From NCBI GenBank assembly GCA_963779615.1, contig CAVZZA010000003.1, forward strand, positions 1,139,781 to 1,203,780: a DNA stretch of 64,000 nt, read 5' to 3'. The notes beneath the pieces are model-generated. The model had not been told where the DNA came from. It ran no database searches and saw nothing but the letters and a program-made list of their open reading frames with translations. Shown here piece after piece: positions 483-57,741 of the stretch (position 1 is the first letter of the stretch; every line of letters starts with the position of its first letter). This stretch comes from an uncultured Nitrososphaeraceae archaeon. Its GTDB lineage: Archaea > Thermoproteota > Nitrososphaeria > Nitrososphaerales > Nitrososphaeraceae. The position numbers and the translations under genes are program-made.

Positions 483-1019
483 CTATGCGCTTCTACTTTT
501 TATTCCTTCTCTAATTTTCACCCCCACACCCCTTAAAAGAGACCTGTCATGGTTTTCTAGCCTTGTGTTGTAATATGAGAAAGGGAATAATGAGCGCCCC
601 ACAGCCAAAACATGATTATCCTTGGGGTGTATTATTGCCACATCTGAGCCATTTTTGACATTATTTCCACATTTATACACATGCTTGACAAATAAGGATC
701 TCCCTTCTGAAACAAATGGGATAGCATCATCAACAGGAATTATGCAATTGGGTGTAAAGTTTTCATTTTTCAAAAAAAGGTCTGCTCCGTGAATTGTCAA
801 TGCAATACCACCATCTGTTCTGAAGGTCCCAATCAATTTCCCATTAGAACTAAAACTCTTTATCTTACCGGTTTTTTTTGAGTAGTCAATTCCCATATCC
901 TTTGGCAAAACAGAACTTATTTCCCGGCCAAAAAGAAAATTAACATGTGCTGAGATTTTCTGAAATGGATCTATCAATAGTTTTTTTTTCAAAGATTGTT
1001 TCATGTGTATTGAATACAA
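483..1019 (-). CDS. PUA-domain RNA-binding protein (archaeosine TGT C-terminal-like)
   Basis: PUA-like PFVSEGRSLFVKHV...VLAVGRS...GVGVKIREG. Confidence 0.75.
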   Translation of the reverse strand: MYSIHMKQSLKKKLLIDPFQKISAHVNFLFGREISSVLPKDMGIDYSKKTGKIKSFSSNGKLIGTFRTDGGIALTIHGADLFLKNENFTPNCIIPVDDAIPFVSEGRSLFVKHVYKCGNNVKNGSDVAIIHPKDNHVLAVGRSLFPFSYYNTRLENHDRSLLRGVGVKIREGIKSRSA

Positions 1020-1114
1020 CTATAAGAATTATCAGCACAAAAACGGGTTCTGTTGAAACGACAAAACTGGGGGAAATAGAAAATACTAATAAATTACTAT
1101 TTAAATAAAGAAGC

Positions 1115-1663
<549 letters not shown>

Positions 1664-1670
1664 ATAAAAA

Positions 1671-2276
1671 ATGCCAAGAAAAAAATACGGTTTGTGTTTT
1701 TACCTGATGGCTAAGAAAACATGTTGGACAGAGGTTGCGGTACTTAGAATAGGCCACAGGCTTGTCAGAGATGACAGGACAACAACACATGCGATACTGG
1801 TGTCAAGGGCTTTTGGGAGTACCGCTATGTATATGACTGATGTGGATGAGGAAATAAAAAACACAATCAACAAGGTAAACAATTCATGGGGAGGGTTAAA
1901 TGAATTTAATCTCAAGATAATCGATGACTGGAAGGACTTGGTTAAGGAATGGAAAAAAAACGAAGGCAAAGTCATCCACCTGACCATGTATGGGCTCCAA
2001 ATTAACAAGGTAATTGAGGAGGTTAAATCGCTAGAGCAGAAAATTTTGGTGATAATCGGGGCTGAAAAGGTTCCAAAGGAAATTTATTTTTTGGCAGACT
2101 ATAACATATCCATAGGAAATCAGCCCCACTCAGAAATAGCAGCGCTGGCTGTCTTTCTGGACAGGTTATTTGAGGGCAAACAATTTGACAAAAGGTTTTC
2201 TGACGGAAAGATGAAAATCATTCCTGCAGAAAAAGGAAAAAATGTGATTCGAATGGAAAGCAAAAAAGACGATTAA
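1671..2276 (+). CDS. trm56: tRNA (cytidine56-2'-O)-methyltransferase aTrm56
   Basis: VLRIGHRLVRDDRTTTH, HLTMYG, GAEKVP, GNQPHSEIAALAVFLDRL SPOUT motifs; true start may be slightly downstream. Confidence 0.92.
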   Translation: MPRKKYGLCFYLMAKKTCWTEVAVLRIGHRLVRDDRTTTHAILVSRAFGSTAMYMTDVDEEIKNTINKVNNSWGGLNEFNLKIIDDWKDLVKEWKKNEGKVIHLTMYGLQINKVIEEVKSLEQKILVIIGAEKVPKEIYFLADYNISIGNQPHSEIAALAVFLDRLFEGKQFDKRFSDGKMKIIPAEKGKNVIRMESKKDD

Positions 2277-2323
2277 TAATCACACTTGTGAGAACAACCT
2301 TAAAAGACATCCTCCGATAAAAA

Positions 2324-3451
2324 TCAGGTCAAAAGTAGGCCAAGTTTGGATAAGCCTATAGCCTTTTTTATCTCCATGGCGATTCGCCGTCCCATACTCA
2401 CAGAACTATCATACAACAGGTCAGAATATGGAGAGCCAGAAACATACAGGTTCGTGCCTGCAACAATCCGGGCGGAAAATTCAAACGCAGTAAAATTGGC
2501 ATTGCTGTCATATACACCCTCTATGCAAAAGGGTCCAGGCATACCCGGAGGAACAAGTTTACTGGCAGCGCTGACAAACTTTTCGCCAATAGAATAAACC
2601 TCAGGCAACAACGATTCCCTCAGTACGATGGGAGAATTACCCACTACGGTATACGAAGGCACCAAATTGGATGATAGTTGATATTTTGCTGGAATTCTCC
2701 CTATCCCATCAATATCAGTTTCATAACGCCTGTCAACACCCAATAACTCCAATTCATTTTCAATAGGGGAATAAAAGAATTGCAAATAAACAGGAACGCC
2801 ATTGGCATATCTTTGTATAAAAAGCTGCTCCTCTGAATCAATAACGTTGGACTCTACAAGTCTTTGAGATTGCTCCTCAAAACTTTTCCTATCAGTAACC
2901 AAAAAGTAACCCTTGCCACCGGCGGCTCCATGCAATTTAACAATGCACAATCCGTCAATATCATTTTTGGATAGCACCTGTTTGGGGGTTGACAATGAGG
3001 ATTCATCCATTAATCGTTGTTTTAACAGCCTGTCAGCCTCCCACCGTAAAATCCACTTATTTCCAAAAATCGGTATTTTGATTTTTTCAAGACTGTCCAC
3101 AGATATTGAAGACACTAGCGTCCCATGGGGTATCAAAATTGGATTATGCGCATCGATCAGGTTTTTTTGAAATTCAGGCTTTAGCATTTCCTGAAAATTG
3201 TTTAACACAACCAGTTTATCAATAAATTTAAACCTTTTGTAAAGGGAGACTCTTTTTTCTTCACAAATCAACAAAGTTTGAAATCCCTCATCTTTAGCCC
3301 CCTTTAGAACTTGCAGAGAGCAGTGCGACCCGAGTGTCATTATGCACCGAGGATTTGCAGGATTTGAATGGTTTTCGGTATCTTTAGTATCAACAGCGGC
3401 AGCGGCAGAAGGAGCAGCAGTCATATAACAGATATAGTATTGAAAAATCAC
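2324..3451 (-). CDS. purP: PurP-family FAICAR synthetase (formate-dependent)
   Basis: TLGSHCSLQVLKGAKDEGF, GAAGGKGYF, LRESLL, FEFSARIVAGTN. Confidence 0.9.
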   Translation of the reverse strand: MIFQYYICYMTAAPSAAAAVDTKDTENHSNPANPRCIMTLGSHCSLQVLKGAKDEGFQTLLICEEKRVSLYKRFKFIDKLVVLNNFQEMLKPEFQKNLIDAHNPILIPHGTLVSSISVDSLEKIKIPIFGNKWILRWEADRLLKQRLMDESSLSTPKQVLSKNDIDGLCIVKLHGAAGGKGYFLVTDRKSFEEQSQRLVESNVIDSEEQLFIQRYANGVPVYLQFFYSPIENELELLGVDRRYETDIDGIGRIPAKYQLSSNLVPSYTVVGNSPIVLRESLLPEVYSIGEKFVSAASKLVPPGMPGPFCIEGVYDSNANFTAFEFSARIVAGTNLYVSGSPYSDLLYDSSVSMGRRIAMEIKKAIGLSKLGLLLT

Positions 3452-3733
3452 CAGATTAAAGTTTTATTAAGGAATTTTGATAGCGGCGGTCACCACACAG
3501 CCACTACACTAAAAAAAGACTCAGGAACGGATGCGAATCAGCATAGAATCTGTCTTTCAAACCATCATCTGAACACAATAGGCAAGACGGATCATCACAA
3601 TTTTAGATTACTGGAAACCAAAACAACAAGGTAACAAAAATAAAATAAAGGCATTTTTGAAAATAACAGATAACCCTATTAAAAAAATTGATTTATTATG
3701 TTGGTTAAATAAATACTTTATACCGTAGTTATC

Positions 3734-4294
3734 ATGTTTGAGAAAGATCACATAATCATCAACAGTGAACTGATTTACAATGGTCCAGTAAGGCTAAGGC
3801 TAGACACTTTTAAAGCTAAAGGAAAAACTTTTAGAAAAGAGGTAGTGGAACATAATGCATCTGTAGGCATAATCCCGGTAATAAATAAAGATGAAATCGT
3901 GTTAATAAAACAATACAGGCATGCGGTAAACGAATACCTGATTGAGATACCTGCTGGCAAAATAGAGAACAAGGAGAAACCAATAGAAGCTGCAAAAAGG
4001 GAGTTGGAGGAGGAAACGGGATTTAGGGGGGATTTGACTCCCTTGACTCAATGCTATCTAGCGCCAAGTTATGACACAGAGCTTATGCATTTTTTCATCG
4101 CAAAAAACATCCACAGGACAGACAGTTCACAAATAATGGATGATGATGAAAACATTTCAAGCATGATTGTAAAGATAGATGACGCACTGCAGTATTGTTT
4201 TAATGGAGGCATAAGGGACTGTAAAACGATATCAGCAATACTACTCTATTACATGTCATTTTTTAAATTAAACAGGCAAACTGCTCAAAAGTAA
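3734..4294 (+). CDS. NUDIX hydrolase (ADP-ribose pyrophosphatase-like)
   Basis: Nudix box GKIENKEKPIEAAKRELEEETG; QYRH...EIPAG. Confidence 0.9.
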   Translation: MFEKDHIIINSELIYNGPVRLRLDTFKAKGKTFRKEVVEHNASVGIIPVINKDEIVLIKQYRHAVNEYLIEIPAGKIENKEKPIEAAKRELEEETGFRGDLTPLTQCYLAPSYDTELMHFFIAKNIHRTDSSQIMDDDENISSMIVKIDDALQYCFNGGIRDCKTISAILLYYMSFFKLNRQTAQK

Positions 4295-5540
4295 TTGTCA
4301 TGTATGTAATTAACAATATCCTGTAACGCAGGGGGATCGTTGTAATAATTTTCAAGATATAAAAATGCAAACAGATTTGCAAAGCACAGTTTTTCCTCAT
4401 TTGTAAAGTTTAGCAAATGACCAAACAAAAATGCAGAGTCCCACGAGTCCCCGGCGCCGCTTACAATATCAATCTTGGATGGTGAGATTGAATTCACAAA
4501 CACGGTGTTTTCACCATCGGACCAAACAGAGCCCATAACGGTATGGACGCATACATCAATTTCAAAAAAATTAGCCAGAAACAGTGCGGATTTGCCAAGG
4601 TTGAGCGGTGTTGCCGGGTTTAAGCATACCGCTGTTAGAAACAAGGCATACCTTCGGTTTTTGGGAGAGCGCAAATTATTTGAATGCATTCGTTTTCGTT
4701 TACGCTTAGGAAATCAATTAATTTTGAGTTGTTTTTTAAATCCTTGACAAATTCTAGCCTCCTTTCGCTTATATCAGCAGGGTCTAAGAAATGCAATGAA
4801 TTTTTAGAATTTTCAAAAACATATTTCAACAAATCGGTTCCCCGTAAATTTGACGCCCAGTTTGTCAAAACCACACCAGACGAGGAACTTAAAATCGACA
4901 GCATGTCACCATCACCATCACCATCAGCATGTTCAATCAATTCCGGTCCAAAGTTACGGTTATCGCCAACATCACTTAACATAACATTTGAAACAGAGAA
5001 TGAGGAATTGGAGAATTCAAAAATAGTCGTTAATCCATGCTTTCCGTTTTTAATGTGCAGGTTTATTCGCGAGCCAAATTTTTTAAAAACGGTGTTCAGA
5101 ACAGAGCAACCAACTTCATCCGCAACTGTAAAGAGATCAACTTTTGCGCCTAGCCTTGCAAGGCAATATGCGACATTAACAGCATTGCCCCCTTTTATGT
5201 CAACACTTTCAATGCCACGAATGCTACCACCCCCCACACCAATTTTTTTGTCTATGGCATCTGTCAAATTTTTCATGTTGGAAATGTGGATAACCCTATC
5301 AATAAAAAAATCTGGCAGAACGGTTATTTTAATACCTGCTCCGGATTTAGATTTCACAATCTCATTTAATTTGTAATAAATGCCTTTAAAAACGGGAGCA
5401 ACATCAGATGGCGAGGAAAAAAGTTGATTGTCACTGCCTTCCCCATCTTTATTTGAATACTCTTTGTCAAGACAAACATGATAATTATCATTGTTGTTGT
5501 TTTTTGAATTGCGATCATTCCCAGAATAATATGTTTCCAA
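4285..5540 (-). CDS. PfkB/ribokinase-family kinase, frameshift near 4650-4690
   Basis: GGNAVNVAYCLARLG and NENE in ORF 4635-5540; SGAGDSWDSAFL in ORF 4285-4689. Confidence 0.85.
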
Positions 5541-40515: not shown

Positions 40516-40749
40516 TTACAAATACAATAAAACATAAAAACCATCCTCTTTAATTTTTCTTTTTTTGCAGTAGTTTTATTATTTTGAAAATCTATTTCCC
40601 TCACGGTTTTTTCCTGATATGTGATTGTCTTTTGGCAATTGTGTCTACTGGTTTTTATGCTTTCATGTCTCAATTCTGATCTTTTAGGGTTAATCTTCAG
40701 GTTTCAAGTTGACAAAATTATTTTTATACCATCATATATTAAAAATGGT

Positions 40750-41079
40750 ATGAGATCTTTATTTTGGATTTTACCAATATTCCTGATTCCATCAGCGTTA
40801 GCATATCCTACAGCAACAGCTCAAAACATGACAAACACAACCGGAAATGGCACCGAGTCAGGCGGGATGTCCTCAGAGTCGGTAGAGAGTGCACAATCCA
40901 ACACAACGGGCGGAACTGCAACAAACACAACCGGAAATGGCACCGAGTCAGGCGGGATGTCCTCAGAGTCGGTAGAGAGTGCACAATCCAACACAACGGG
41001 CGGAACTGCAACAAACACAACCGGAAATGGCACCGAGTCAGGCGGGATGTCCTCAGAGTCGGTAGAGAGTGCACAATGA
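40750..41079 (+). CDS. Small secreted Thr/Ser/Gly-rich repeat protein
   Basis: Signal peptide MRSLFWILPIFLIPSALA followed by 30-aa repeats with N-x-T sequons. Confidence 0.7.
   Translation: MRSLFWILPIFLIPSALAYPTATAQNMTNTTGNGTESGGMSSESVESAQSNTTGGTATNTTGNGTESGGMSSESVESAQSNTTGGTATNTTGNGTESGGMSSESVESAQ
40831..41077 (+). repeat. Perfect 90-bp tandem repeat x2.7
   Basis: Identical units starting at 40831, 40921 and 41011. Confidence 0.95.
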
Positions 41080-41366
41080 TCTACCTTTTTTATTAATTTT
41101 ATTGTAAAACCAAAATGGATTTTTATAGTTTAAGGAAGTAGGACAATAATTGCCAGTGAGAAAAATTTAAAATGATTTTGGGTTTCCCCATGTATGATTG
41201 CATTTGGTACAACGGAAGAATTGTGTATCAGGTTCGTCAGCCGAGTCTGTTTGCACTATCCACCAAAAGCTTATCTGCCAATCATTTACTTGCCTTGAGA
41301 TTTTCATCGATGATTTATTGCGCAAGAAATTAATTTCACAAACCAAATATGTTATCTAAAAGATAA

Positions 41367-44355: not shown

Positions 44356-44901
44356 TCATAGATCTTCCATCAGGGAAATATAATTGTCAACACTTCTGTC
44401 TAACAGGGTAATGTCAGTTTTCTCAATTAGTTTTTCTACTTCTAATGGGTTTTTGAGGGAGTATTCTGAAACTTCAATTCCTCTTTTTCTGATTATTACC
44501 TCCGAGTCCAATAGCCTTTTTAAGTTCCAGGATGTGGTTGATGGGGCTCTATTGATATGAGAGACTAGCTCATTAAATGTGCAGGATTTTCTTTCAATTA
44601 GTTTTAGAATTATTTCTTTTGTTGTTCTTATCTTTAAATACCCTAAAATTATTGTTTCTTCTGAGGGAGTAGATGCAGGATAATAGCGAGTAATGTTGCT
44701 GTTTTCTGTTCGTATAACTTTGATAGTCGAACGTTTTTCCAAAGTGGCAAGATGGTGCGATAATGTTCCATTATTTAAATTGGTTATTCGCAATAATTCC
44801 CTATATCTTATTCCAGGCGAAAGATTAATAATTTTCAATAAAAAACTCTTTTTATTTTCTTTTTCTAATTTGCCCAAATCCAATATTTCTTTGTGACTCA
44901 T
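44356..44901 (-). CDS. Double winged-HTH transcriptional regulator
   Basis: PGIRYRELLRITNLNNGTLSHHLATLE and TFNELVSHINRAPSTTSWNLKRL; overlaps the upstream gene by ATGA. Confidence 0.85.
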   Translation of the reverse strand: MSHKEILDLGKLEKENKKSFLLKIINLSPGIRYRELLRITNLNNGTLSHHLATLEKRSTIKVIRTENSNITRYYPASTPSEETIILGYLKIRTTKEIILKLIERKSCTFNELVSHINRAPSTTSWNLKRLLDSEVIIRKRGIEVSEYSLKNPLEVEKLIEKTDITLLDRSVDNYISLMEDL

Positions 44902-45308
44902 TTTCTCTCAACCCTAATTACTCCAGCAGCAAACAAAGATACCATAAGGAGCAACAATATATGTGGTAGCTCGACCTCAATATAAGGTATATGATAATCT
45001 CCAAGAATATCGCTTGCTTGTAGCAAATATAGAAATTCTACAATCAACAGTATGCTAAAGCTTAATGAAGTTAGCAAAACTCTTTTGCTTTTTGTCTTTT
45101 TAAATGAAAGGATGGAGATAACGGTTAGAAACAAGGCAATGTCAAAACTTATGAGGTGAATAGCAATATGATAGATCATTCCAGGATGGAACAAATGGGG
45201 AACTAGCACGGGATAAACAATAATAGAAGTGAAGGAAATTGACAGTACTAAGAAAAGGTTGGTTTTGTTATTTAAAAAATCTTGAATGTGTCCTAAAATA
45301 GCCACCAT
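44898..45308 (-). CDS. His/Met-rich 4-TM membrane protein (candidate metal sensor)
   Basis: Four hydrophobic segments; PHLFHPGMIYHIAIH loop, YH and ELPH; paralog at 56077. Confidence 0.75.
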   Translation of the reverse strand: MVAILGHIQDFLNNKTNLFLVLSISFTSIIVYPVLVPHLFHPGMIYHIAIHLISFDIALFLTVISILSFKKTKSKRVLLTSLSFSILLIVEFLYLLQASDILGDYHIPYIEVELPHILLLLMVSLFAAGVIRVERK

Positions 45309-45600
45309 TATTCTTACTGTTCTTTATCATCCCTTTTTAGCAATGACTATAATAATTGAAAAAGTTACATAAAAGGCAATTGGTACAATAACAAAATAAA
45401 GAATCAGAATGCGTACACAAACAGATTAGCTAAATTAATAAAAATCAAAATAATTAGAGTGCAATAACTGCATATTTGCAAAGGCATTGTTGACAAAAAT
45501 TTAAATTTTAATATCATATGATCTAACAATAAAAAAAATATGATGATAGTGATTGCATATGTTTTCTACATATTGCTACTGCTTTGTTGTCGCAATCCCA

Positions 45601-46263
45601 TTATTTGTTTAAAGTCGAGTTTTCAGATGTGTTTGACACACCTAACCTAGATTGTATGTCCACATTTGGTAAATATGGTTCAGGAAATCCCAATCGTGGT
45701 TCAGGGCAACCAAATCCTCCTACCAAAGCTTTTCTTACAACATCCTGTGAGATTTGGACTGTGGAATTGTCAGATTTTGTTGCCTCTCCACCAGCCGGAT
45801 TGCAAGCAAATGTTTGATCAAAGCTTGTTCCGTTAATATCACCAAAAATCCTGTAACTGTATGTAGTTGCAATGGTTGGATAGAATGTTTTAGATTCGTA
45901 TGATCCAAGTTCTCCAAAGGCAGGCTCCAAATCAGAGGTCATGTTTTTATCCCCGGCGGATATTTCCACTTTCAAGGAGTTTTCCAGCCCCGTTATTGGC
46001 TGCGTTCCATTGGCTTGGGAATTGGTCGGGTCGGTGGCGTTTGGCCAAATACCCCTAAAATCAACACCCGTTTTATCATCAACAGATGCCGGTTCATTTA
46101 GCGAGCCTATCACAAACAAGTAGTCTTTACCATTTATTGTATACAATGCCTTTTGATGTGCAAGAGCAATCTGGCTATTAAGAGATAATAGCAGTATTGC
46201 AGCTGCAGCAATTGTGCCAAACATTAATAGATTCTGTCTTCTACGATTATTTTTAATTCGCAT
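45601..46263 (-). CDS. Secreted protein with predicted mature N-terminal His (paralog A)
   Basis: RRR-containing signal ending ALA|HQ; NEP, LEPAFGELGSY, YPT, two Cys. Confidence 0.8.
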   Translation of the reverse strand: MRIKNNRRRQNLLMFGTIAAAAILLLSLNSQIALAHQKALYTINGKDYLFVIGSLNEPASVDDKTGVDFRGIWPNATDPTNSQANGTQPITGLENSLKVEISAGDKNMTSDLEPAFGELGSYESKTFYPTIATTYSYRIFGDINGTSFDQTFACNPAGGEATKSDNSTVQISQDVVRKALVGGFGCPEPRLGFPEPYLPNVDIQSRLGVSNTSENSTLNK

Positions 46264-46937: not shown

Positions 46938-47570
46938 ATGTCATATAAAACACATCTAAGATTTGCAACTTCTTTTTTCCTTATATCCGCGTTTATTACT
47001 GCACCTCTTATTCAAACATCTTTTGCTCATCAAATATCATTATACACAATAAAAGACAAAAACCATTTATTTGAAGTGGAATGGGCTAACGAACCGGTAG
47101 CTGTAGATGATAAAACAAATGTTCAATTTACAGCTCTCTTTCCAAACGCTACGGACCCGACCAACCCTGAAGCTGATGGAACGCAGCCAATAACGGGGCT
47201 GGAAAACTCCTTGAAAGTGGAAATATCCGCCGGGGATAAAAACATGACCTCTGATTTGGAGCCTGCCTTTGGAGAACTTGGATCATACGAATCTAAAACA
47301 TTCTATCCGACCATTGCAACTACATACAGTTTTAGGATTTTTGGTGATATTAACGGAACAAGCTTTGATCAAACATTTGCTTGCAATCCAATTCTTGGTG
47401 AAAATTCACCACCTGACAATTCCACAGTCCAAATCTCACAGGATGTTGTAAGAAAAGCTTTGATTGGCGGTTTGGAGTGTCCTGAAGATAGGACAGGCTT
47501 TCCTGAACCATATGTACCCCAAAATGATTTAGCTCAAGCATTAAACAATGCAACAACACCTAAACAATAA
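46938..47570 (+). CDS. Secreted protein with predicted mature N-terminal His (paralog B)
   Basis: Signal ending SFA|HQ; NEP; core nearly identical to paralog A. Confidence 0.8.
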   Translation: MSYKTHLRFATSFFLISAFITAPLIQTSFAHQISLYTIKDKNHLFEVEWANEPVAVDDKTNVQFTALFPNATDPTNPEADGTQPITGLENSLKVEISAGDKNMTSDLEPAFGELGSYESKTFYPTIATTYSFRIFGDINGTSFDQTFACNPILGENSPPDNSTVQISQDVVRKALIGGLECPEDRTGFPEPYVPQNDLAQALNNATTPKQ

Positions 47571-47719: not shown

Positions 47720-47742
47720 TTGTTAATTCGGGATTTGTACAA
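47720..47742 (+). promoter_or_regulatory. Operator upstream of the copC TATA box
   Basis: TTGTTAATTC-GGG-ATTTGTACAA, then 7 nt, then TATTAAT. Confidence 0.6.
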
Positions 47743-47777
47743 TAATGATTATTAATATTATCATATAACAATGGAGT

Positions 47778-48546
47778 GTGAGAATTTTTAAACCTCTTTT
47801 TTTTCTAATTTTTTATACTATAGGGATAAGTATATTTATTTTGCCTGTGTATGGACATGCTAATCCCACTGTCTTAAATCCAAAACCAAACCAAACATTT
47901 GACATTAACGGTCAAGCAGTGCCTGATAAAATATCGATTACTTTTTCAGAAAGGCCCGAAATAAAAGCCAGCAATATCAAGGTAACTGACTCAAAAAATA
48001 CAAGAGTGGATAACAACGATTTAAAGACTTTGAGCAGTGATGACAGAACACTTTCAGTTTCTTTGGGTAAATCAAAAATAATACCCGGAATATATACGGT
48101 AAACTGGATAGTCTTGTCAAAGGATGATGGACACATTACAAAAGGGATCCTATGTTTTCTCAATAACTGAAAATAACAAACAAAGTGATAATCAAGCAAC
48201 AAACAACAAATGCACTGCCAAAATATTCGAAAAATCTTACAACTGAAAACATAATTTATGAAGTTCGGTATTTCTCCCGTTTCAAGCGGGACAAAACACG
48301 TTTAATTTAACAGCTTTATACAACAATGGCACTTCTGTTAAAAATATCAATAATGTGTATTTAGAGTTTAACAATCCAACTAAAAATATTGGTCCAATTG
48401 TTGATGTAATGAACAAAACGTCACCAGGAAACTATTCATCCACTGGTAACTTTTTAAGCCAAACTGGAGATTGGGAGATTAAGATAATTGTGCAGAGAAC
48501 AGGAGAATACGACATTAACCAAAAACTCGATATAAACATAAAATAA
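47778..48546 (+). CDS. copC: CopC copper-binding protein with a C-terminal YtkA/FixH-like domain, frameshifted
   Basis: VYG|HANP His1, ITFSE, GIYTVNWIVLSKDDGHITKG; distal fragment GNYSSTGNFLSQTGDWEIKIIVQR. Confidence 0.85.
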
Positions 48547-48604
48547 TTCTCCATTTTATTCATTATTTTAATAATTCGAAAGAACACAATATAAACAATA
48601 GACC

Positions 48605-50054
48605 ATGATAAATACCAATTAAGCTTTTAGGTGTTATTTTATTAATAACTTCAATAATCAATGGCATACTTCAAATCCCAAATACGGCATTTGCTCAACA
48701 GGAATTTAACAATTCAGGAACAACTGAATCAGTGACTTCCAATTATGACGCAATAATTAAATCCATTTTAATTATATCGCAGGTGTCAATTTTGGGAATA
48801 ACATTCAATCATGTCATTTTTCAAAAAATTATGAGAAGGAAAAATAATCAGATGGTGATGGAGGAAAGGATTATAACATAACGCAATAATCAATTATTGA
48901 AAAGATTTACTGTCATTTTAGCACTTTGCTGCATAACCATAATAATTGCTTCTACAGGCATAATGTTAATTCAATCCTATGAGCTTTCACAAAATCTGTC
49001 CCAAGATCTGTTTTCTGCGTTCTCCATATTGTATACAACATCAGTGGGTCAGGTTTGGACGATAAGAATCATTACCTCTTTAATGATAACAGCATTGGTT
49101 TTTTCCCATTATATTGATTAAAAGGAACGCAATAAAGAAAAAGATTAAGGGCAATTCAACCCAACAGCATGGAGACAAAATTTCCAATACTATTGCCATA
49201 TTACTTCTCATTAGGGATTATTGTCGTTTCTTCGATAAATCTATTTTCCAACAGCATGTTAAGTCATAGCAATAGTTTGTCACCTTTAGCGGTATCAGTT
49301 GATTGGATTCATTTTATGTCAGTATCCATTTGGATTGGAGGTTTATTCTACCTGTCATCCATTTTTTTAAAAAGCATAAAATTATCCTATAAATGAATCT
49401 GCCAAAAGTATAGATGATGATGAAAGCGACATTAAAAATAGTATATTAAACACTCATCAAATTTCTTTTATCGTTAATGTGTTTTTCATTTATTGCCATT
49501 TCATCACTTTGCATAATCGGAACAACCGGATTGTATATGAGCTTGATCCATTTACAAAGATTAGATGCAATATTTACTACTTTATATGGTCAAATACTAA
49601 TCATAAAACTCAGTTTAGCTTTCACAGTGATTTTTCTGGGCAGGCACAATCAGCTTAAAATACAAAAGTATGCCGCAATCACATCAAAAGTCATAATAGG
49701 AAGCAGCATCAATAATGACGATCAAAAAGCCTTTTCAGGTCACAACAAAAAAATAGTCTGTTTTCTTTAATTCAATGACATAGATCCCTAAAAATAGAAT
49801 CACTAATGGGAATTTCCGTTCTTATTGTAGCATCTTTTCTTTCAGTAACCTCCCCACCTTCCCTGGAAACATCAAATCCAGATTCTAATCTCAACAACAA
49901 TACTAATTTAACAAATAATGCAAAAAAGGAATAAATGTAGACTTTACTATAATGGTAATAATTTTGTCAATCATTATAATAATTTTTGGCATTGATTAAC
50001 TTTAGAAAAAACAGGCAACAAATAAAGGAAATATTTCCACCCTTTTCCAGGTGA
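48605..50054 (+). CDS. copD: CopD-family copper transport membrane protein, heavily fragmented
   Basis: Fragments TSVGQVWTIR / SH...DWIHFMSVSIWIGGL / GTTGLY...TLYGQILIIK / KIES; many frameshifts, so errors or a pseudogene. Confidence 0.75.
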
Positions 50055-50290: not shown

Positions 50291-51765
50291 CTAAAGGACA
50301 GGAATGACAGCTAATTTTACATTACTGCCATCTATCCATGAGATCGCCATTATCCTATCTGAACCCGTGGTATATGGATAATGCTTTGTTATATCACCTG
50401 ATACAAAGTTACCATTTTTAATCAAATGTCCATTCTTATCCACAACAGCTAAATGTATTGTACCATCTCCAACAAAGCTGAAATCTTCTTCATAGGTAGA
50501 GCTTTTCTTCAATCCTTCAGAGTTTACAAAAACAATCCATGAATTACCATATTTATCTGTTTTAAGGTATTGGGTTGTAGGCGGAATCCATTGTTCTGAA
50601 AGCAGGTGAATGGGCAGAGGTTTGTTAAATGTTAATCCTTTGTCACCAGAAGTCGTATAATAGAATCCAGGGCCATTTGGAGCAAACTCACTTCCCGTAA
50701 ACCAAGCAATATGAAGGGTTCCATCCTTATCAAAATCCATGCCAGGTCCGGAATCAGGGCATCCATTCATGAACCATTTATCGTTTCCCACACGAGAAGG
50801 AGTGGAGAAATTTTCAGCTTTTCCATTATCAGTGGAATGGTAAACTGTAATGTCCCTAATTACGGTTTGATTCTGACCATCTTCCAGCAAAAACGGAGTT
50901 TTGGTGCTATTATCATTCAAATCAAGAGATTTGTTTTGAAAAGCAGATCTGGAGGTAACGTATAGCTCATCATCAGGACCAAATTTTATGACCGTAGCAC
51001 AACATTGGCATGCTGAATGATCAGCAATGGAACTGTTAGAGAAAGTCTTGCCTCCATCTTGGGAGCTTACAACTCTAACTACAGTGGGATGTACCAGACA
51101 CATCTTTTTCCAGGTCATAATCAAGATTAAGGTAGGATATGTAAACTTTGTCATCGGGTGTTACTGCTATGTAGGGATATGATTGTTCCCCCTTTGGGTC
51201 ATTTGGTGCAGGGTTTATTGCAGGTTGGAATGTAGATCCCCCATCTAGTGATCGAGCATATTGCAAGGTTACCTGGCCATATGGGTACTTTACCGGATCG
51301 CTGTGGTCGGCTTTGTACCATACTACATGTATGTCATTTTTAGGCCCTATCCCCAAGGCAGGGGCACTCCATTGTTCATCTATGGCAATAGAATCTTTGA
51401 CATCGTTAACTCTGACAGGATTAGAATACGTTTTACCAAAATCAATGGATTTTTGTAGATACAAATTCCCACCACTGCTTTCGTTTTTGAAGTAGATAAC
51501 ATAAATTGCATTTGTTTTAGGATCAATACCTACTGCAGGCGTAGTTGCGTTTTTAAAAGTGTTGAATATTGTATTGTTCAAGCTTTTATCAATGATTGAC
51601 TTCATACTAGTATTATTATTACTGGTAATGTCATTTGATAACGAAACAGTAGAGTTTGAAGCAAAAGATAGGTGTTGTTGCTGCTGATTGAATTTGACTC
51701 ATACTGCCGATAAAAAAAAACACGATAGCAAGAATTCCTAAAATTTTGTATTTACCAGTAAACAT
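50291..51765 (-). CDS. Secreted BNR/Asp-box (sialidase-like) beta-propeller with CxCC and GCP motifs, two frameshifts
   Basis: Asp boxes SIDFGKTY, SLDGGSTF, SQDGGKTF, STDNG, SGDKGLTF; ADHSACQCC and WFMNGCPDSGP; signal peptide from ATG 51765. Confidence 0.82.
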
Positions 51766-51844: not shown

Positions 51845-52627
51845 TTAAATCGGAATCAGCGGCTGTGTATTGTTAGGTATATAGCTTGTTATTAGAGCAA
51901 GCTGACCCGTCAAAAGTATGACTCCGATAACTATCAATATGGCTCCGCTTATTCTGTTGATCCATGGCATCCACTTTCTGATTCGCTGGAAAAAAGAGAT
52001 GAATCTTTCTATTACCAATGCAGAGACAAAAAAAGGTATTGCCAAACCCAGTGCATAGAATGATAAAAGCTGAATACCGGTCCAAATAGAAGTGCTTGTC
52101 GCTGCAATTGTCAATATTCCTGCAAGAATTGGACCAATACAAGGAGTCCAACCAGCTCCAAAACTCATTCCAACTACAAAGGAACCTACCTGGCTTGTCG
52201 GTTTATTTTTCATTTTAAAACCTAATTGCCTTTCTAAAATTGGTATTGTAAACAAGCCAGTTAGGTGGATTCCAAAGGTTATTAAAAGTGCCCCCCCTAT
52301 TCTGGCTATCCATATGCTATAGTCGTAAAACACACTCCCAATTGTTGTAGTGGAGATTCCAAGAAGAATAAACACCACGGAAAATCCTAATATAAACATT
52401 GTTGTTCTTAACAAAAGCTTGCTCCTGATTTTTTTTCTATTTTCTCGCTCCTGCTGAATTTGTCTTTTCTCCCCTACCGGGTTGTTTCGGTTAAAAGAGG
52501 AAAAATCTCCCAAACTTGTTCCAGTTACAAAAGCTAGAAAACTTGGAATTAGAGGCAATACACACGGTGATAAAAAACTCAACAAACCCCCAATAAAGGC
52601 AAGAGGGAATCCAATATTGTATGTCAA
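51845..52627 (-). CDS. ccdA: CcdA/DsbD-type transmembrane electron transporter
   Basis: SFLSPCVLPLIP and WTPCIGPIL. Confidence 0.93.
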   Translation of the reverse strand: MTYNIGFPLAFIGGLLSFLSPCVLPLIPSFLAFVTGTSLGDFSSFNRNNPVGEKRQIQQERENRKKIRSKLLLRTTMFILGFSVVFILLGISTTTIGSVFYDYSIWIARIGGALLITFGIHLTGLFTIPILERQLGFKMKNKPTSQVGSFVVGMSFGAGWTPCIGPILAGILTIAATSTSIWTGIQLLSFYALGLAIPFFVSALVIERFISFFQRIRKWMPWINRISGAILIVIGVILLTGQLALITSYIPNNTQPLIPI

Positions 52628-53271
52628 AGATGCTTGAGGTGACGAATTGATAGTTGTTGTTTCTGTTGGCTTACCATCCGCAACAGAAGAAGAATTGCCA
52701 TTTTGTAGATTGGGCTATCGAATTTATATGAGCACTGATTGCAGGAGATTGCGCTGGTAATAAAATTCTCAATATTGACAGTATTCCCTTCTATAGGACC
52801 TCTCCACCTATAAACAACCTGGCCATCTTTGTCTATTAAAAAGGATTCGGGAACTCCTATGGTTTTAAACGCCCTGGCAAAATTGTTGTTTGGGTCAAAT
52901 AAAATTGGATATGTCATATTTAGTTTATTTGTAAAGGAAGTTATCATGGATTCTGATCCTCTCCTGTCTATGGAAACACCTACTACGTCTACACCATATT
53001 TGTTGAGGTCCTGATATATTTTCTCCAATATTGGAATTTCTTCTCTACATGGTTGGCACCATGTGGCCCATAAATTCAACAATGTCAGATTATTCTTTTT
53101 GTAAATTGATTCAAGGGAAACAATTTTTTTTGTTTCTAAATCAATGCTTGAATATTTTGGAGCTAAAGGAAAACCATCAGTTTTTTGAGAAAAGGCATCA
53201 TTTTGATAGCAGATGGTCAATACTATTACCAATAAAGACATTATACAAACGCTTTTGAAGATATTTACCAT
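52624..53271 (-). CDS. TlpA/ResA-like exported thioredoxin
   Basis: NLWATWCQPCREEIP, GVPESFLIDKDG; N-terminal anchor; C-terminus may be frameshifted. Confidence 0.9.
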   Translation of the reverse strand: MVNIFKSVCIMSLLVIVLTICYQNDAFSQKTDGFPLAPKYSSIDLETKKIVSLESIYKKNNLTLLNLWATWCQPCREEIPILEKIYQDLNKYGVDVVGVSIDRRGSESMITSFTNKLNMTYPILFDPNNNFARAFKTIGVPESFLIDKDGQVVYRWRGPIEGNTVNIENFITSAISCNQCSYKFDSPIYKMAILLLLRMVSQQKQQLSIRHLKHL

Positions 53272-55674: not shown

Positions 55675-56076
55675 TTGAAGTTATTTTAGTTTGACATTAT
55701 TTATTATTAATGATTGATTAAGATTAAAATAATGACTCATATATTGTGCAATTGGATTTAATTTGGCAGACAATTCAAATTACTGATCCATAAAATTGGT
55801 AATGCATAAAGGTTTTTTGACCATGGCATTTATGAAAGTGGTAGGACTTATGAGGATCAGTTGAATCAGGGTACAAAAACTATAAAGAGTTAGGCAGATG
55901 ACGTAGTTAGTGGTTATGTAAATGGTAATGATGGGTTTATCAACTTCTATTGTTTAAATAGTTTTTATGATGCCTTGCCCGACATGTTTGTTTGTGAATT
56001 TTATACTGTCAATGTTTTAATTGTGTTTTTATTTTAGGAATGTACCAATCGCTTTTTAAGTTACTTTTCCGATGAA

Positions 56077-56514
56077 ATGTTATTGCTTAAAAAGGACAGC
56101 AATATCAGCTATTATGAGTACTTTCAGGTTTTCCTCAGCAATAAAACTAATCTCTTTTTGGTGTTATCCTTAGTATTCATATCCATTATTGCTTATCCGT
56201 TAATTTTACCTCACATGAATCATCCATCAATGATTTACCATATTGGAGTTCACATAGTCAGTTTTGATGTGGCATTATTTTTAACTTTTATTTCAGTTTT
56301 ATCGTTTAAAAAGACCAAAAGCAAAAAGGTTTTACTTACATCGTTAAGTTTTGGCATACTATTAGTTGTAGAATTTTTATATCTGTTGCAATCAAGTGAC
56401 GTTCTAGGAGAATATCATTTACCATATATTGGAATAGAAGTACCGCACATTCTGTTATTGTTTATGCTCGTTTTCTTTGCTGCCGGAGTAATAAAGGTCG
56501 AAAAAAGATCATAA
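56077..56514 (+). CDS. His/Met-rich 4-TM membrane protein, paralog of 44898-45308
   Basis: NKTNLFLVLS, PHMNHPSMIYHIGVH, FKKTKSK, EVPHILLL shared with the first copy. Confidence 0.8.
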   Translation: MLLLKKDSNISYYEYFQVFLSNKTNLFLVLSLVFISIIAYPLILPHMNHPSMIYHIGVHIVSFDVALFLTFISVLSFKKTKSKKVLLTSLSFGILLVVEFLYLLQSSDVLGEYHLPYIGIEVPHILLLFMLVFFAAGVIKVEKRS

Positions 56515-56760
56515 TAGCCAAGGAAGAAGCAGAAAGAGAATTACCATTATCTAATTCTAATACAAGGAGAAAAAACATAAAGAGCAGAATATTGGAAACA
56601 ACGATTTTTCAAATACAATAAGAGACCCCATTGGAAACTAAACTTAATAATGGAACTTGTTTACGTACTTTTTAGAAACATTAGAAATAATCATCAATTA
56701 AAGCAAGGAAACAAAGCACCAACTGCCCAAACTGTTTTTAATAGTGTCCGGTAAATCCAA
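56515..56760 (+). pseudogene. Decayed wHTH regulator remnant
   Basis: Fragments KSRIL..., TKLNNGT, LETLE, SSIK resemble the 44356 regulator, with stops and indels. Confidence 0.55.
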
Positions 56761-57070
56761 ATATAGTATTATTTAAAAAACAACACAATAAACGTGGTTC
56801 TGTTCTCCTAAGAAAAAAAATACATTCTTTTGTTGGATATACCGGTTTTTTACAAGCAAAATATAGTGTTTGTATCTACGGTTCAAAAAATATTAATTTA
56901 ACAAACTTCTGTTTTCAATCCGGATAAACGGTATACCATCTCCGGGTGTTCAAAAAGATAATCCGCCATAACAATGATGGGGGCATTTTGTGATGGGTAC
57001 ACCAATTTTTTCTGGTAACTAAAAAGCTATGTTTATACAGAGTATTTTTCAACAAAATCACCCGTTTTCT

Positions 57071-57741
57071 GGCGCTGTTAACTTAAGCATTTACCACTTC
57101 CTTGTTATGCATATTTACAAATAGTTTCAACCAATTCTTTACATTATAGAGATTACATCTTTTCTTTCCACATGGAAAGTAATCGTCAAATCCTTCGATT
57201 CTATCCTTAATATATTGCACAGTTCTCTCTATGAGACCCTTCTCATATGGGAAATGAATGTGGTGCTCCAGTTTTAGGGATTTACATGCTTGCGGATACC
57301 ATGTAGATCTGTTGATACTGATTGTTTGCCATATTCTTCAACTATGTCAAGCATAAAACGTTCTGCTACGAAAATATTTCTCGCCTTGGATATTTTTGTG
57401 CGAAGAATTGCTTGGGTTTTAGGCTCAATAGCAATCCACAGCCAAAAGAATTCAGAACATATCTTGATTTGTGTTTCATCAATGATAAACTGTGATACCA
57501 TCTTTCTATTTGACGACATCTTTTGAGGCTTGCACTTTTGAATCCAGTTCCAGACTAGAACGTGGCTTCTCTTAACAATATGCAAAAATGATAATGCTTT
57601 GGCAACATTTCTAAATGATAAACCAAGAAAGTACAAATACAAACCATGACCAATATGCTCTGAAGGTGTTCTGTTTCTTTTACTACACACATGAGAGATA
57701 AAGCATCTTCAAGTTATATCATTTTCTTAAGTTAAAGAACC
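57071..57741 (-). mobile_element. IS6-family insertion sequence; transposase 57083-57690 with a frameshift near 57305
   Basis: LYFLGLSFR, SHVLVWNWIQK, IDETQIK, WLWIAIEP, VSTD, TWYPQAC, IERTVQYIKDR; terminal IRs GGCGCTGTTAACTTAAG and GGTTCT-TTAACTTAAG. Confidence 0.9.

Follow-up and report, generated by a model that had tools for sequence, protein, structure and literature searches.

In a 64,000-nucleotide (nt) stretch of DNA from an uncultured Nitrososphaeraceae archaeon (GenBank assembly GCA_963779615.1, contig CAVZZA010000003.1, positions 1,139,781 to 1,203,780; hereafter the window, meaning the whole stretch analysed), two genes on the reverse strand overlap by four nucleotides. One encodes a small polytopic membrane protein, and the other a regulator with two winged helix-turn-helix (wHTH) domains. 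A second copy of the membrane gene lies further along the window, on the forward strand. The features of the two loci are the following:

44356 to 44901, reverse strand: regulator gene, a 181-amino-acid (aa) open reading frame (ORF) with two tandem winged-helix domains and a conserved C-terminal helix
44898 to 45308, reverse strand: membrane protein gene, a 136-aa ORF with an N-terminal helix and four transmembrane (TM) helices
44898 to 44901, reverse strand: ATGA overlap, seen in the sequence, of the membrane-gene stop codon TGA and the regulator start codon ATG
45369 to 45387, reverse strand: promoter box TGTACCAAT, then 3 nt and a TATA-like box, 60 nt upstream of the membrane-gene ATG; putative operator
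56041 to 56059, forward strand: identical promoter element before the paralogous membrane gene, 17 nt upstream of its ATG
56077 to 56514, forward strand: paralog of the membrane protein gene, encoding 145 aa with 71% identity across 130 aa
56515 to 56760, forward strand: decayed regulator remnant, with stops in every frame (three-frame translation, tblastn and DNA alignment)

A first-pass annotation of this DNA had described a four-TM protein whose gene overlaps the regulator start as ATGA, and ORFs, sequence, AlphaFold2 (AF2) model and hydropathy all agree with that description. It had also proposed co-occurrence of the two genes across archaea as a check. We scanned species-representative genomes for the membrane protein and obtained 29 loci, all from Nitrosocosmicus or Nitrososphaeraceae. 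Regulator-coding sequence lies directly downstream of the membrane gene in 26 of them, in 24 cases as a single ORF of 167-195 aa and in two (L028 and L029) split over two frames. No regulator follows the membrane gene in L010 or L026, and the contig of L027 breaks off within the membrane gene. The ATGA junction was present in all 27 cases examined, i.e. in the 26 loci with regulator-coding sequence and in the first locus of the window, and several genomes possess two or three copies of the module. In these loci the two genes do co-occur, and we conclude that they are a conserved, translationally coupled unit.

The AF2 model of the membrane protein, built with 24 homologs, has a mean predicted local distance difference test (pLDDT) value of 80.6 and consists of a short N-terminal helix and of helices at residues 15-38, 45-72, 75-99 and 113-135. 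The topology was assigned from hydropathy and charge with the positive-inside rule. On this basis, the KKTKSKR loop and the C-terminal RVERK are predicted on the cytoplasmic side, and the PHLFHPG loop and the acidic loop 100-113 outside; H38, H41, H47, H51, E91, E113 and H116 would then all be located on the outer face or in the outer leaflet of the membrane. This is in line with the earlier proposal that the candidate ligands lie on one face of the membrane.

The conservation of these residues was counted in 42 diverse relatives with 22-43% identity. H51 is kept in 41 of 42, H47 in 35, H116 in 31, and H38 and H41 in 29 each; E113 is kept in 33 and E91 in 31. No other feature of the Nitrososphaerota membrane-protein family is as well conserved as the His/Glu cluster, and the conservation of the core His residues among homologs, which the first-pass annotation had singled out for checking, was thereby confirmed. 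The annotation had regarded PHxxHPxMIYHIxxH, a Glu in TM3 (VEFLY), YH and E-x-P-H as conserved ligand motifs. All of them are present in both window copies, but the Met and the His of 'YH' are not family features: M44 is Met in only 11 of the 42 relatives and His in 12, whereas the 'YH' His (H106) is kept in only 4.

Close homologs of the membrane protein number 140 (56-98% identity), and their labels, where given, are Nitrosocosmicus or Nitrososphaeraceae. An exhaustive profile search retrieved 131 representative relatives, and 2133 clusters were counted in a wider, word-indexed profile search. Fusions with a kinase or a DNA-binding domain were absent among the 131 representative matches, because all of these are only 54-175 aa long. 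When the family profile was run over all window ORFs with hmmsearch, only the two copies were found. The protein matched no Pfam or NCBIfam family above chance level (for Pfam, none at E ≤0.01). Foldseek found no match for the model in the PDB with E <0.6, and TM-scores did not exceed 0.45, hence no fold was assigned. Relatedness to CopD was considered and rejected, since the family profile, compared by hhalign with the unbroken CopC-CopD fusion of locus L012, reached a probability of 0.2%.

The regulator is better connected to known families. Its N-terminal domain (residues 22-80) matches Pfam PF24266, HTH_HVO_0163_N, with 37.8 bits (cut-off 31), and its second domain (residues 97-136) matches HTH_5/ArsR with 40.1 bits. 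The AF2 model (pLDDT 78.6) agrees with these assignments, showing two wHTH units and then helices; in Foldseek, the matches are single ArsR/SmtB wHTH domains (such as BigR, CzrA, PagR and SmtB, with TMt of about 0.7). We found 308 homologs, and nearly all regulator homologs among the matches listed carry the PF24266 label. To judge from the PF24266 score above the gathering score, the second wHTH and full-length similarity to haloarchaeal proteins, the regulator is an HVO_0163-type double-wHTH protein.

Both recognition helices are invariant across 25 regulator homologs (57-91% identity). Residues 165-181 are conserved as well, with L167, D168, Y174, S176 and L181 invariant, yet they are modelled at pLDDT <50, a combination that is typical of a segment folding on a partner. 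We found no conserved Cys pair or ArsR-type ligand set in the regulator: its sole Cys, C107, is present in 18 of the 25 homologs, and the only conserved His positions are 49/50, within the first recognition helix, and 115. The ArsR metalloregulator model NF033788 scored 36.1 bits, below its cut-off of 55. The description of the regulator as two wHTH repeats with no metal-binding domain therefore agrees with Pfam, with the AF2 model and with the lack of a conserved ligand set. A kinase, HATPase_c, receiver or other signalling domain was absent from both proteins, the only match being a chance-level one to HisKA_7TM (E 0.097); together with the lack of fusions among the 131 relatives, this bears out the view of the pair as kinase-free. 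We conclude that the pair is a real, conserved module and read it as a membrane-protein-coupled one-component regulator.

The upstream DNA of the membrane genes could not be aligned except for TGTACCAAT, a spacer of 3-4 nt and TTTTAA/TTTAT. The box is exact in 25 of 28 assessable promoters, comprising 23 of the 26 loci with upstream DNA and both window copies; L015 has one mismatch, and the box has diverged in L008 and L010. Within the window, the 9-mer occurs only twice, each time before a membrane gene, and it was not found before the window's exported-protein genes described below. In most loci a TTG start lies about 25 nt past the TATA-like element, which suggests leaderless transcripts; the transcript of the window paralog is probably near-leaderless. 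The invariant recognition helices of the 25 homologs match the invariant target box, and the box may well be the operator of the regulator, in which case the operon would be autoregulated.

The same gene order had been reported to recur at 56077-56760. This is true of the membrane gene, but the regulator is present there only as a stop-ridden remnant: the DNA after the paralog aligns with the first ~200 nt of the regulator gene, where the similarity ends, and no regulator ORF was found downstream of the second membrane gene by translation or tblastn. Since the regulator of the second locus is decayed, the recurrence of the gene order holds only as a remnant. A fragment of an IS240-type DDE transposase gene (57274-57690, reverse strand) is located close to the remnant (56515-57270 region). 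In L004, L007 and L011 the pair is likewise flanked by transposase genes, which indicates that some copies of the module lie in unstable regions.

A connection to copper is provided by published transcriptomics of Nitrososphaera viennensis. In that study, 12 occurrences of the Cu-limitation motif TTCSGSMTTTGWACYANT are reported in front of genes whose expression rises when Cu is limiting (PMC7785015). The promoter box TGTACCAAT equals the 3' part of this motif. In the window, this 3' part, (T)TGTACCAAT, precedes both membrane genes, where the 5' half of the motif is degenerate, and a full-length match precedes copC. Members of the regulon would be expected to carry the motif within ~35-70 nt upstream of the start codon, and it is present upstream of both membrane genes (the 3' part, 60 and 17 nt before the ATG) and of copC (the full motif, 33 nt before the start).

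In N. viennensis, the hypothetical gene NVIE_014290 (log2 fold change 2.72 under Cu limitation), one of the carriers of the motif, is presumed to be co-transcribed with the ArsR gene NVIE_014280 (2.47), both being induced about 6-fold, and the two adjoin genes for a CopC/D protein (2.68), an exported protein (2.80) and a second CopC/D protein (2.20); the sequence upstream of NVIE_014290 in Dataset S1 reads TTTGTACCAAT, followed by 3 nt and a TATA-like run (PMC7785015). NVIE_014290 is termed a putative cation channel protein, i.e. a membrane protein, in another study, which, in the part available, also reports induction of the N. viennensis pair in biofilm (PMC12448741). The N. viennensis pair thus resembles the window pair in its order, a hypothetical gene and then an ArsR-family regulator, in its CopC/D-fusion and exported-protein neighbours and in its promoter, but belongs to another genus and is likened by synteny and promoter. 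In the accessible sections of the transcriptome paper no function is assigned to these two genes, although its supplement suggests that NVIE_014280 might act as a repressor (PMC7785015).

The first-pass annotation had assumed copper-type ligands and had proposed that the membrane protein senses metal and sequesters or activates the regulator directly. The identity of the promoter box with part of the Cu-limitation motif and the induction of the syntenic pair (PMC7785015) speak for the link to copper. Overall, the original observation is partly confirmed, and its interpretation is partly supported and is strengthened by the published transcriptomics.

The neighbourhood of the pair in the window is equivalent to the N. 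viennensis cluster, with exported proteins, CopC/D, a sialidase-like gene, DsbD and Redoxin:

45601 to 46263, reverse strand: exported protein with no Pfam family, sharing the strand of the pair and located upstream of it; belongs to the cop cluster
46938 to 47570, forward strand: paralog of the exported protein, 74% identical, divergently transcribed
47727 to 47744, forward strand: full-length match to TTCSGSMTTTGWACYANT with 2 mismatches, 33 nt upstream of the CopC start at 47778
47778 to 49874, forward strand: CopC, a YtkA-like piece and CopD (Pfam CopC and CopD), with CopD spread over three frames
50294 to 51641, reverse strand: sialidase/BNR-like gene, split by a frameshift near 51090
51845 to 53271, reverse strand: DsbD-type membrane protein and thioredoxin/Redoxin protein (Pfam)

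Homologs of the exported protein adjoin the pair in 6 fetched loci, and exported-protein and/or CopC/D genes are close to it in 6 fetched loci and in the window. In the regulator tree, all 6 copCD-linked loci, the window included, fall into one of two deep clades (support 100/99). A putative sialidase and genes of the DsbD and Redoxin kinds are also described for the N. viennensis Cu-limitation cluster (PMC7785015). Other contexts of the pair include Redoxin-DsbD in L011, creatininase and cupin in L004 and L009, and ZnuA/ABC-3 in L008. In the last of these (617-4407), a paralogous pair with a promoter box diverged from TGTACCAAT adjoins the ZnuA/ABC-3 metal-uptake transporter and a MacB/FtsX permease.

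The two exported proteins of the window share a long, almost identical central block, and their DNA forms a 467-nt inverted repeat (45700-46166 and 47020-47486, 84% complementary), which suggests gene conversion. Both start with A-H-Q after the predicted signal peptide, so that copper could conceivably be bound at an N-terminal His; in the Atlas, their only lead is to YtkA (0.89). The coding sequence of the cop genes is broken into CopC (47799-48158), a YtkA-like piece (48277-48543) and CopD pieces (48681-49160, 49136-49381, 49474-49671 and 49779-49874). Its homolog in L012 is a single intact ORF of 933 aa, a fusion with a different domain order (tblastn), and the break in the window reflects either a pseudogene or assembly indel errors. 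The sialidase-like gene is 72-77% identical to a 527-aa ORF of L029, which is itself only a weak BNR_2 match. Elsewhere in the window, an ORF at 40621-41096 on the forward strand has a Thr/Gly/Ser-rich unit of ~32 aa (NTTGNGTESGGMSSESVESAQS...) that is present in tandem as three near-identical copies, and it probably encodes a surface protein.

Relatives of the regulator are present in haloarchaea. With tblastn, full-length regulator homologs were found on 40 haloarchaeal plasmid or secondary-chromosome records (23-31% identity, 84-95% coverage, E down to 3e-15). The similarity includes the C-terminal helix, and these matches score 78-120 bits on PF24266. In 8 of 9 haloarchaeal regions, a hypothetical gene of 95-109 aa is located immediately upstream on the same strand, at distances from a 4-nt overlap to a 68-nt gap; L034 is the sole examined region without it. 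The encoded partner proteins have three TM helices, and the one from Halobacterium belongs to DUF7471 (1.2e-29). A profile of 8 haloarchaeal partners aligned with the window family over 76 columns covering TM2-TM4, with an hhalign probability of 78% and an E of 1.7e-5, scores that are inflated for TM profiles. The window protein itself matched neither DUF7471 nor DUF7521 (gathering score 27 bits). Distant Nitrososphaerota members gave repeated sub-threshold matches, at most 23.7 bits for DUF7521 and 20.2 bits for DUF7471, and in the Atlas the DUF7521 and DUF7471 clusters appeared only as leads (0.79-0.82).

The haloarchaeal pairs are thus similar to the window pair in the full-length homologous regulator, the small multi-TM gene directly upstream and, tentatively, the TM2-TM4 profile match, but differ in the three-TM partner and in their flavin-transferase and thrombospondin-repeat neighbours instead of cop genes. 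In L031, L035, L036 and L038, a trio convergent to the pair encodes a ~180-aa hypothetical protein, a thrombospondin type 3 repeat protein and an FAD:protein FMN transferase, of which L030 shows only the FAD:protein FMN transferase. Elsewhere the neighbours are PepSY (L033) and a Dyp-type peroxidase (L037). For Haloferax, the available portions of two reports describe HVO_B0192/B0193, a TM protein and a regulator on one mRNA of ~1,077 nt that responds to cell-division/quorum regulators (PMC8406309; bioRxiv 10.1101/2025.11.10.687552), and this pair is likened to the window pair by description only. DUF7471 and DUF7521 are listed in Pfam as families of unknown function.

The job that we propose below for the window pair, sensing of extracytoplasmic copper at the membrane and control of cop genes, is that of CopRS/CusRS, but neither window protein has a histidine kinase, ATPase or receiver domain. 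In Bacillus subtilis, SdpI and SdpR are a polytopic membrane protein and an ArsR-type autorepressor encoded in one operon, without a kinase; SdpI loaded with its signal, a peptide toxin, holds SdpR, a single-wHTH dimer, at the membrane, and the operon is induced. The working principle of the window pair may be analogous, with a membrane protein and an ArsR-type autoregulator in one operon. The proteins themselves differ: the SdpR model NF033789 scored 24.3 bits on the window regulator (cut-off 100), the membrane protein has no SdpI match, the gene order is reversed, and neither the single-wHTH dimer nor the peptide-toxin signal has a counterpart in the window pair as we read it. The YcnK-YcnJ-YcnI system, also of B. 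subtilis, encodes a CopC-CopD fusion importer, induced at copper scarcity, together with a dedicated regulator and an extracytoplasmic copper-binding protein. The combination of a CopC-CopD fusion, a dedicated regulator and an extracytoplasmic protein recurs here, but YcnK is soluble, has its own copper-binding domain and lacks a small membrane partner, and the families are unrelated. Each wHTH of the window regulator superposes, with TMt of about 0.65-0.78, on ArsR/SmtB metalloregulators (CzrA, SmtB, CadC, BigR), which bind metal through an alpha3N Cys pair or an alpha5 Asp/His/His/Glu set. However, the window regulator joins its two wHTH domains in a single chain, where these proteins form a homodimer; it has neither of these ligand sets and scores below the cut-off of the metalloregulator model.

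We tentatively propose, giving it slightly less than an even chance, that the pair is an autoregulated, bicistronic, kinase-free membrane-sensor/regulator module of the copper-limitation regulon in soil ammonia-oxidising archaea (AOA). The regulator would recognise the asymmetric box as a single molecule, each wHTH reading one half-site, and would thereby control its own operon and copC/D-type genes. The membrane protein would sense the extracytoplasmic copper status via the outer-leaflet cluster of H38, H41, H47, H51, E91, E113 and H116. A direct contact at the short, very basic face that it exposes to the cytoplasm would relay its state to the regulator. This contact would probably involve the conserved acidic/hydrophobic C-terminal helix of the regulator, which could be held at or released from the membrane as SdpR is by SdpI. 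The sequence of the regulator fits both a repressor that leaves the DNA when Cu is limiting and an activator. A complex prediction with the membrane protein (24-row alignment) and the regulator (25-row alignment) returned 0.00 in both runs and, made with no controls, speaks neither for nor against binding.

Several points weigh against this proposal. Its central steps, contact between the two proteins, metal binding and contact of the regulator with the motif, are all ones that we infer. The second deep regulator clade (clade A; 10 of the 29 loci) has a housekeeping synteny with dUTPase, amidohydrolase, GNAT and bPH/SHOCT genes and no metal genes, and its loci keep the His cluster and the promoter box nonetheless. 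The haloarchaeal partners have neither TM1 nor the His cluster, which means that the pairing predates the proposed metal site and does not depend on it. On its cytoplasmic side, the membrane protein exposes very little surface (~14 residues at the N-terminus, a loop of 7 and a tail of 5). The full motif at 47727-47744 is the only window match at ≤2 mismatches, with 0.33 expected and with at least one match in 27 of 100 shuffles, so that this single hit is not significant alone. Among the copC/copCD genes checked, the full motif was seen only in the window, and the first 14 motif positions had no match at ≤2 mismatches before copCD of L012, L017, L019 and L021. The promoter box is located where a B recognition element would be, and an alternative transcription factor B (TFB) could read it instead; AOA have many TFBs. 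TFB induction is reported in biofilm in the part of PMC12448741 available. The biofilm induction of the N. viennensis pair implies that the signal need not be copper itself, and the orthology of NVIE_014290/NVIE_014280 to the window genes is presumed from synteny and promoter identity alone.

The membrane protein could instead be a regulated effector, either a small cation channel or a copper-handling component of CopC/D uptake, with the regulator sensing alone or via another partner and the two genes merely co-transcribed; we consider this unlikely. Many ArsR-type repressors are co-transcribed with a transporter under their control, and the minimal cytoplasmic surface of the membrane protein would suit an effector. 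However, the regulator has no conserved ligand site of its own, and the membrane protein resembles neither CopD nor any transporter family and has no PDB match with E <0.6. With its outward-facing His/Glu cluster, the protein would also be fit to capture metal or let it pass, but the pairing is kept in haloarchaea whose partners have no such cluster. Likewise, the gene adjoins exported proteins and CopC/D in 7 loci including the window, whereas pairing and ATGA junction persist in the 10 clade-A loci without a nearby metal gene. The label putative cation channel protein for NVIE_014290 (PMC12448741) is in favour of an effector.

Somewhat less probable still, in our estimate, is that the pair is a general archaeal module for sensing the state of envelope, redox or membrane, to which copper would be linked indirectly in ammonia oxidisers, for example through electron-transport arrest or biofilm, and in which the His residues serve structure, protonation or another ligand. 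The haloarchaeal pairs do stand beside varied extracytoplasmic redox genes (FMN transferase, thrombospondin-repeat, PepSY and Dyp peroxidase), and the contexts in Nitrosocosmicus vary too, from ZnuA/ABC-3 (L008) through creatininase and cupin (L004 and L009) to the housekeeping genes of clade A. Yet all copCD-linked loci are in one regulator clade, and H51 (41/42) and H47 (35/42) belong to the best-conserved cluster of the family. Moreover, while the N. viennensis genes are induced in biofilm as well (PMC12448741) and HVO_B0192/B0193, similar by description, responds to cell-division/quorum regulators (PMC8406309; bioRxiv 10.1101/2025.11.10.687552), the box equals part of a motif that was defined on genes chosen for their copper link (PMC7785015). 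Finally, the window is AT-rich and contains several frameshifted genes, and adjacency and motifs could in principle be due to chance or to ORF calling; this is already refuted by the numbers of homologs (140 close and 131 representative distant ones for the membrane protein, 308 for the regulator), the confident folds of both proteins and the recurrence of gene order, junction and promoter across 29 loci.

A wider version of the sensor/regulator proposal, which we regard as somewhat unlikely, is that of a widespread archaeal kinase-free device, in which an extracytoplasmic cue is detected by a small polytopic membrane protein that acts directly on a double-wHTH transcription factor, a monomer recognising a two-part, asymmetric operator. 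For soil ammonia oxidisers, this cue would be Cu(II), read at the outer-leaflet His/Glu cluster, and the device would act as master switch for the whole copper-limitation regulon, comprising copC/D, exported proteins, multicopper oxidases and DsbD; in haloarchaea, the same chassis would carry other sensor heads for other cues.

In the literature on HVO_0163, Nitrosocosmicus copper regulation, DUF7521/DUF7471/DUF5985/DUF8036, NVIE_014290/NVIE_014280, HVO_B0192/B0193 and archaeal ArsR sequestration, we found no functional study of the pair. How copper is sensed and how the cop genes are regulated in these archaea is stated as an open question in the accessible part of PMC7785015. The published Cu-limitation motif has had no known reader, and the pair provides a concrete candidate transcription factor together with a possible membrane sensor. 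Because its own promoter carries the motif and it is encoded beside copC/D, the question of copper sensing becomes directly testable. The link to the haloarchaeal pairs suggests a general, undescribed archaeal way of coupling membrane sensing to transcription without kinases.

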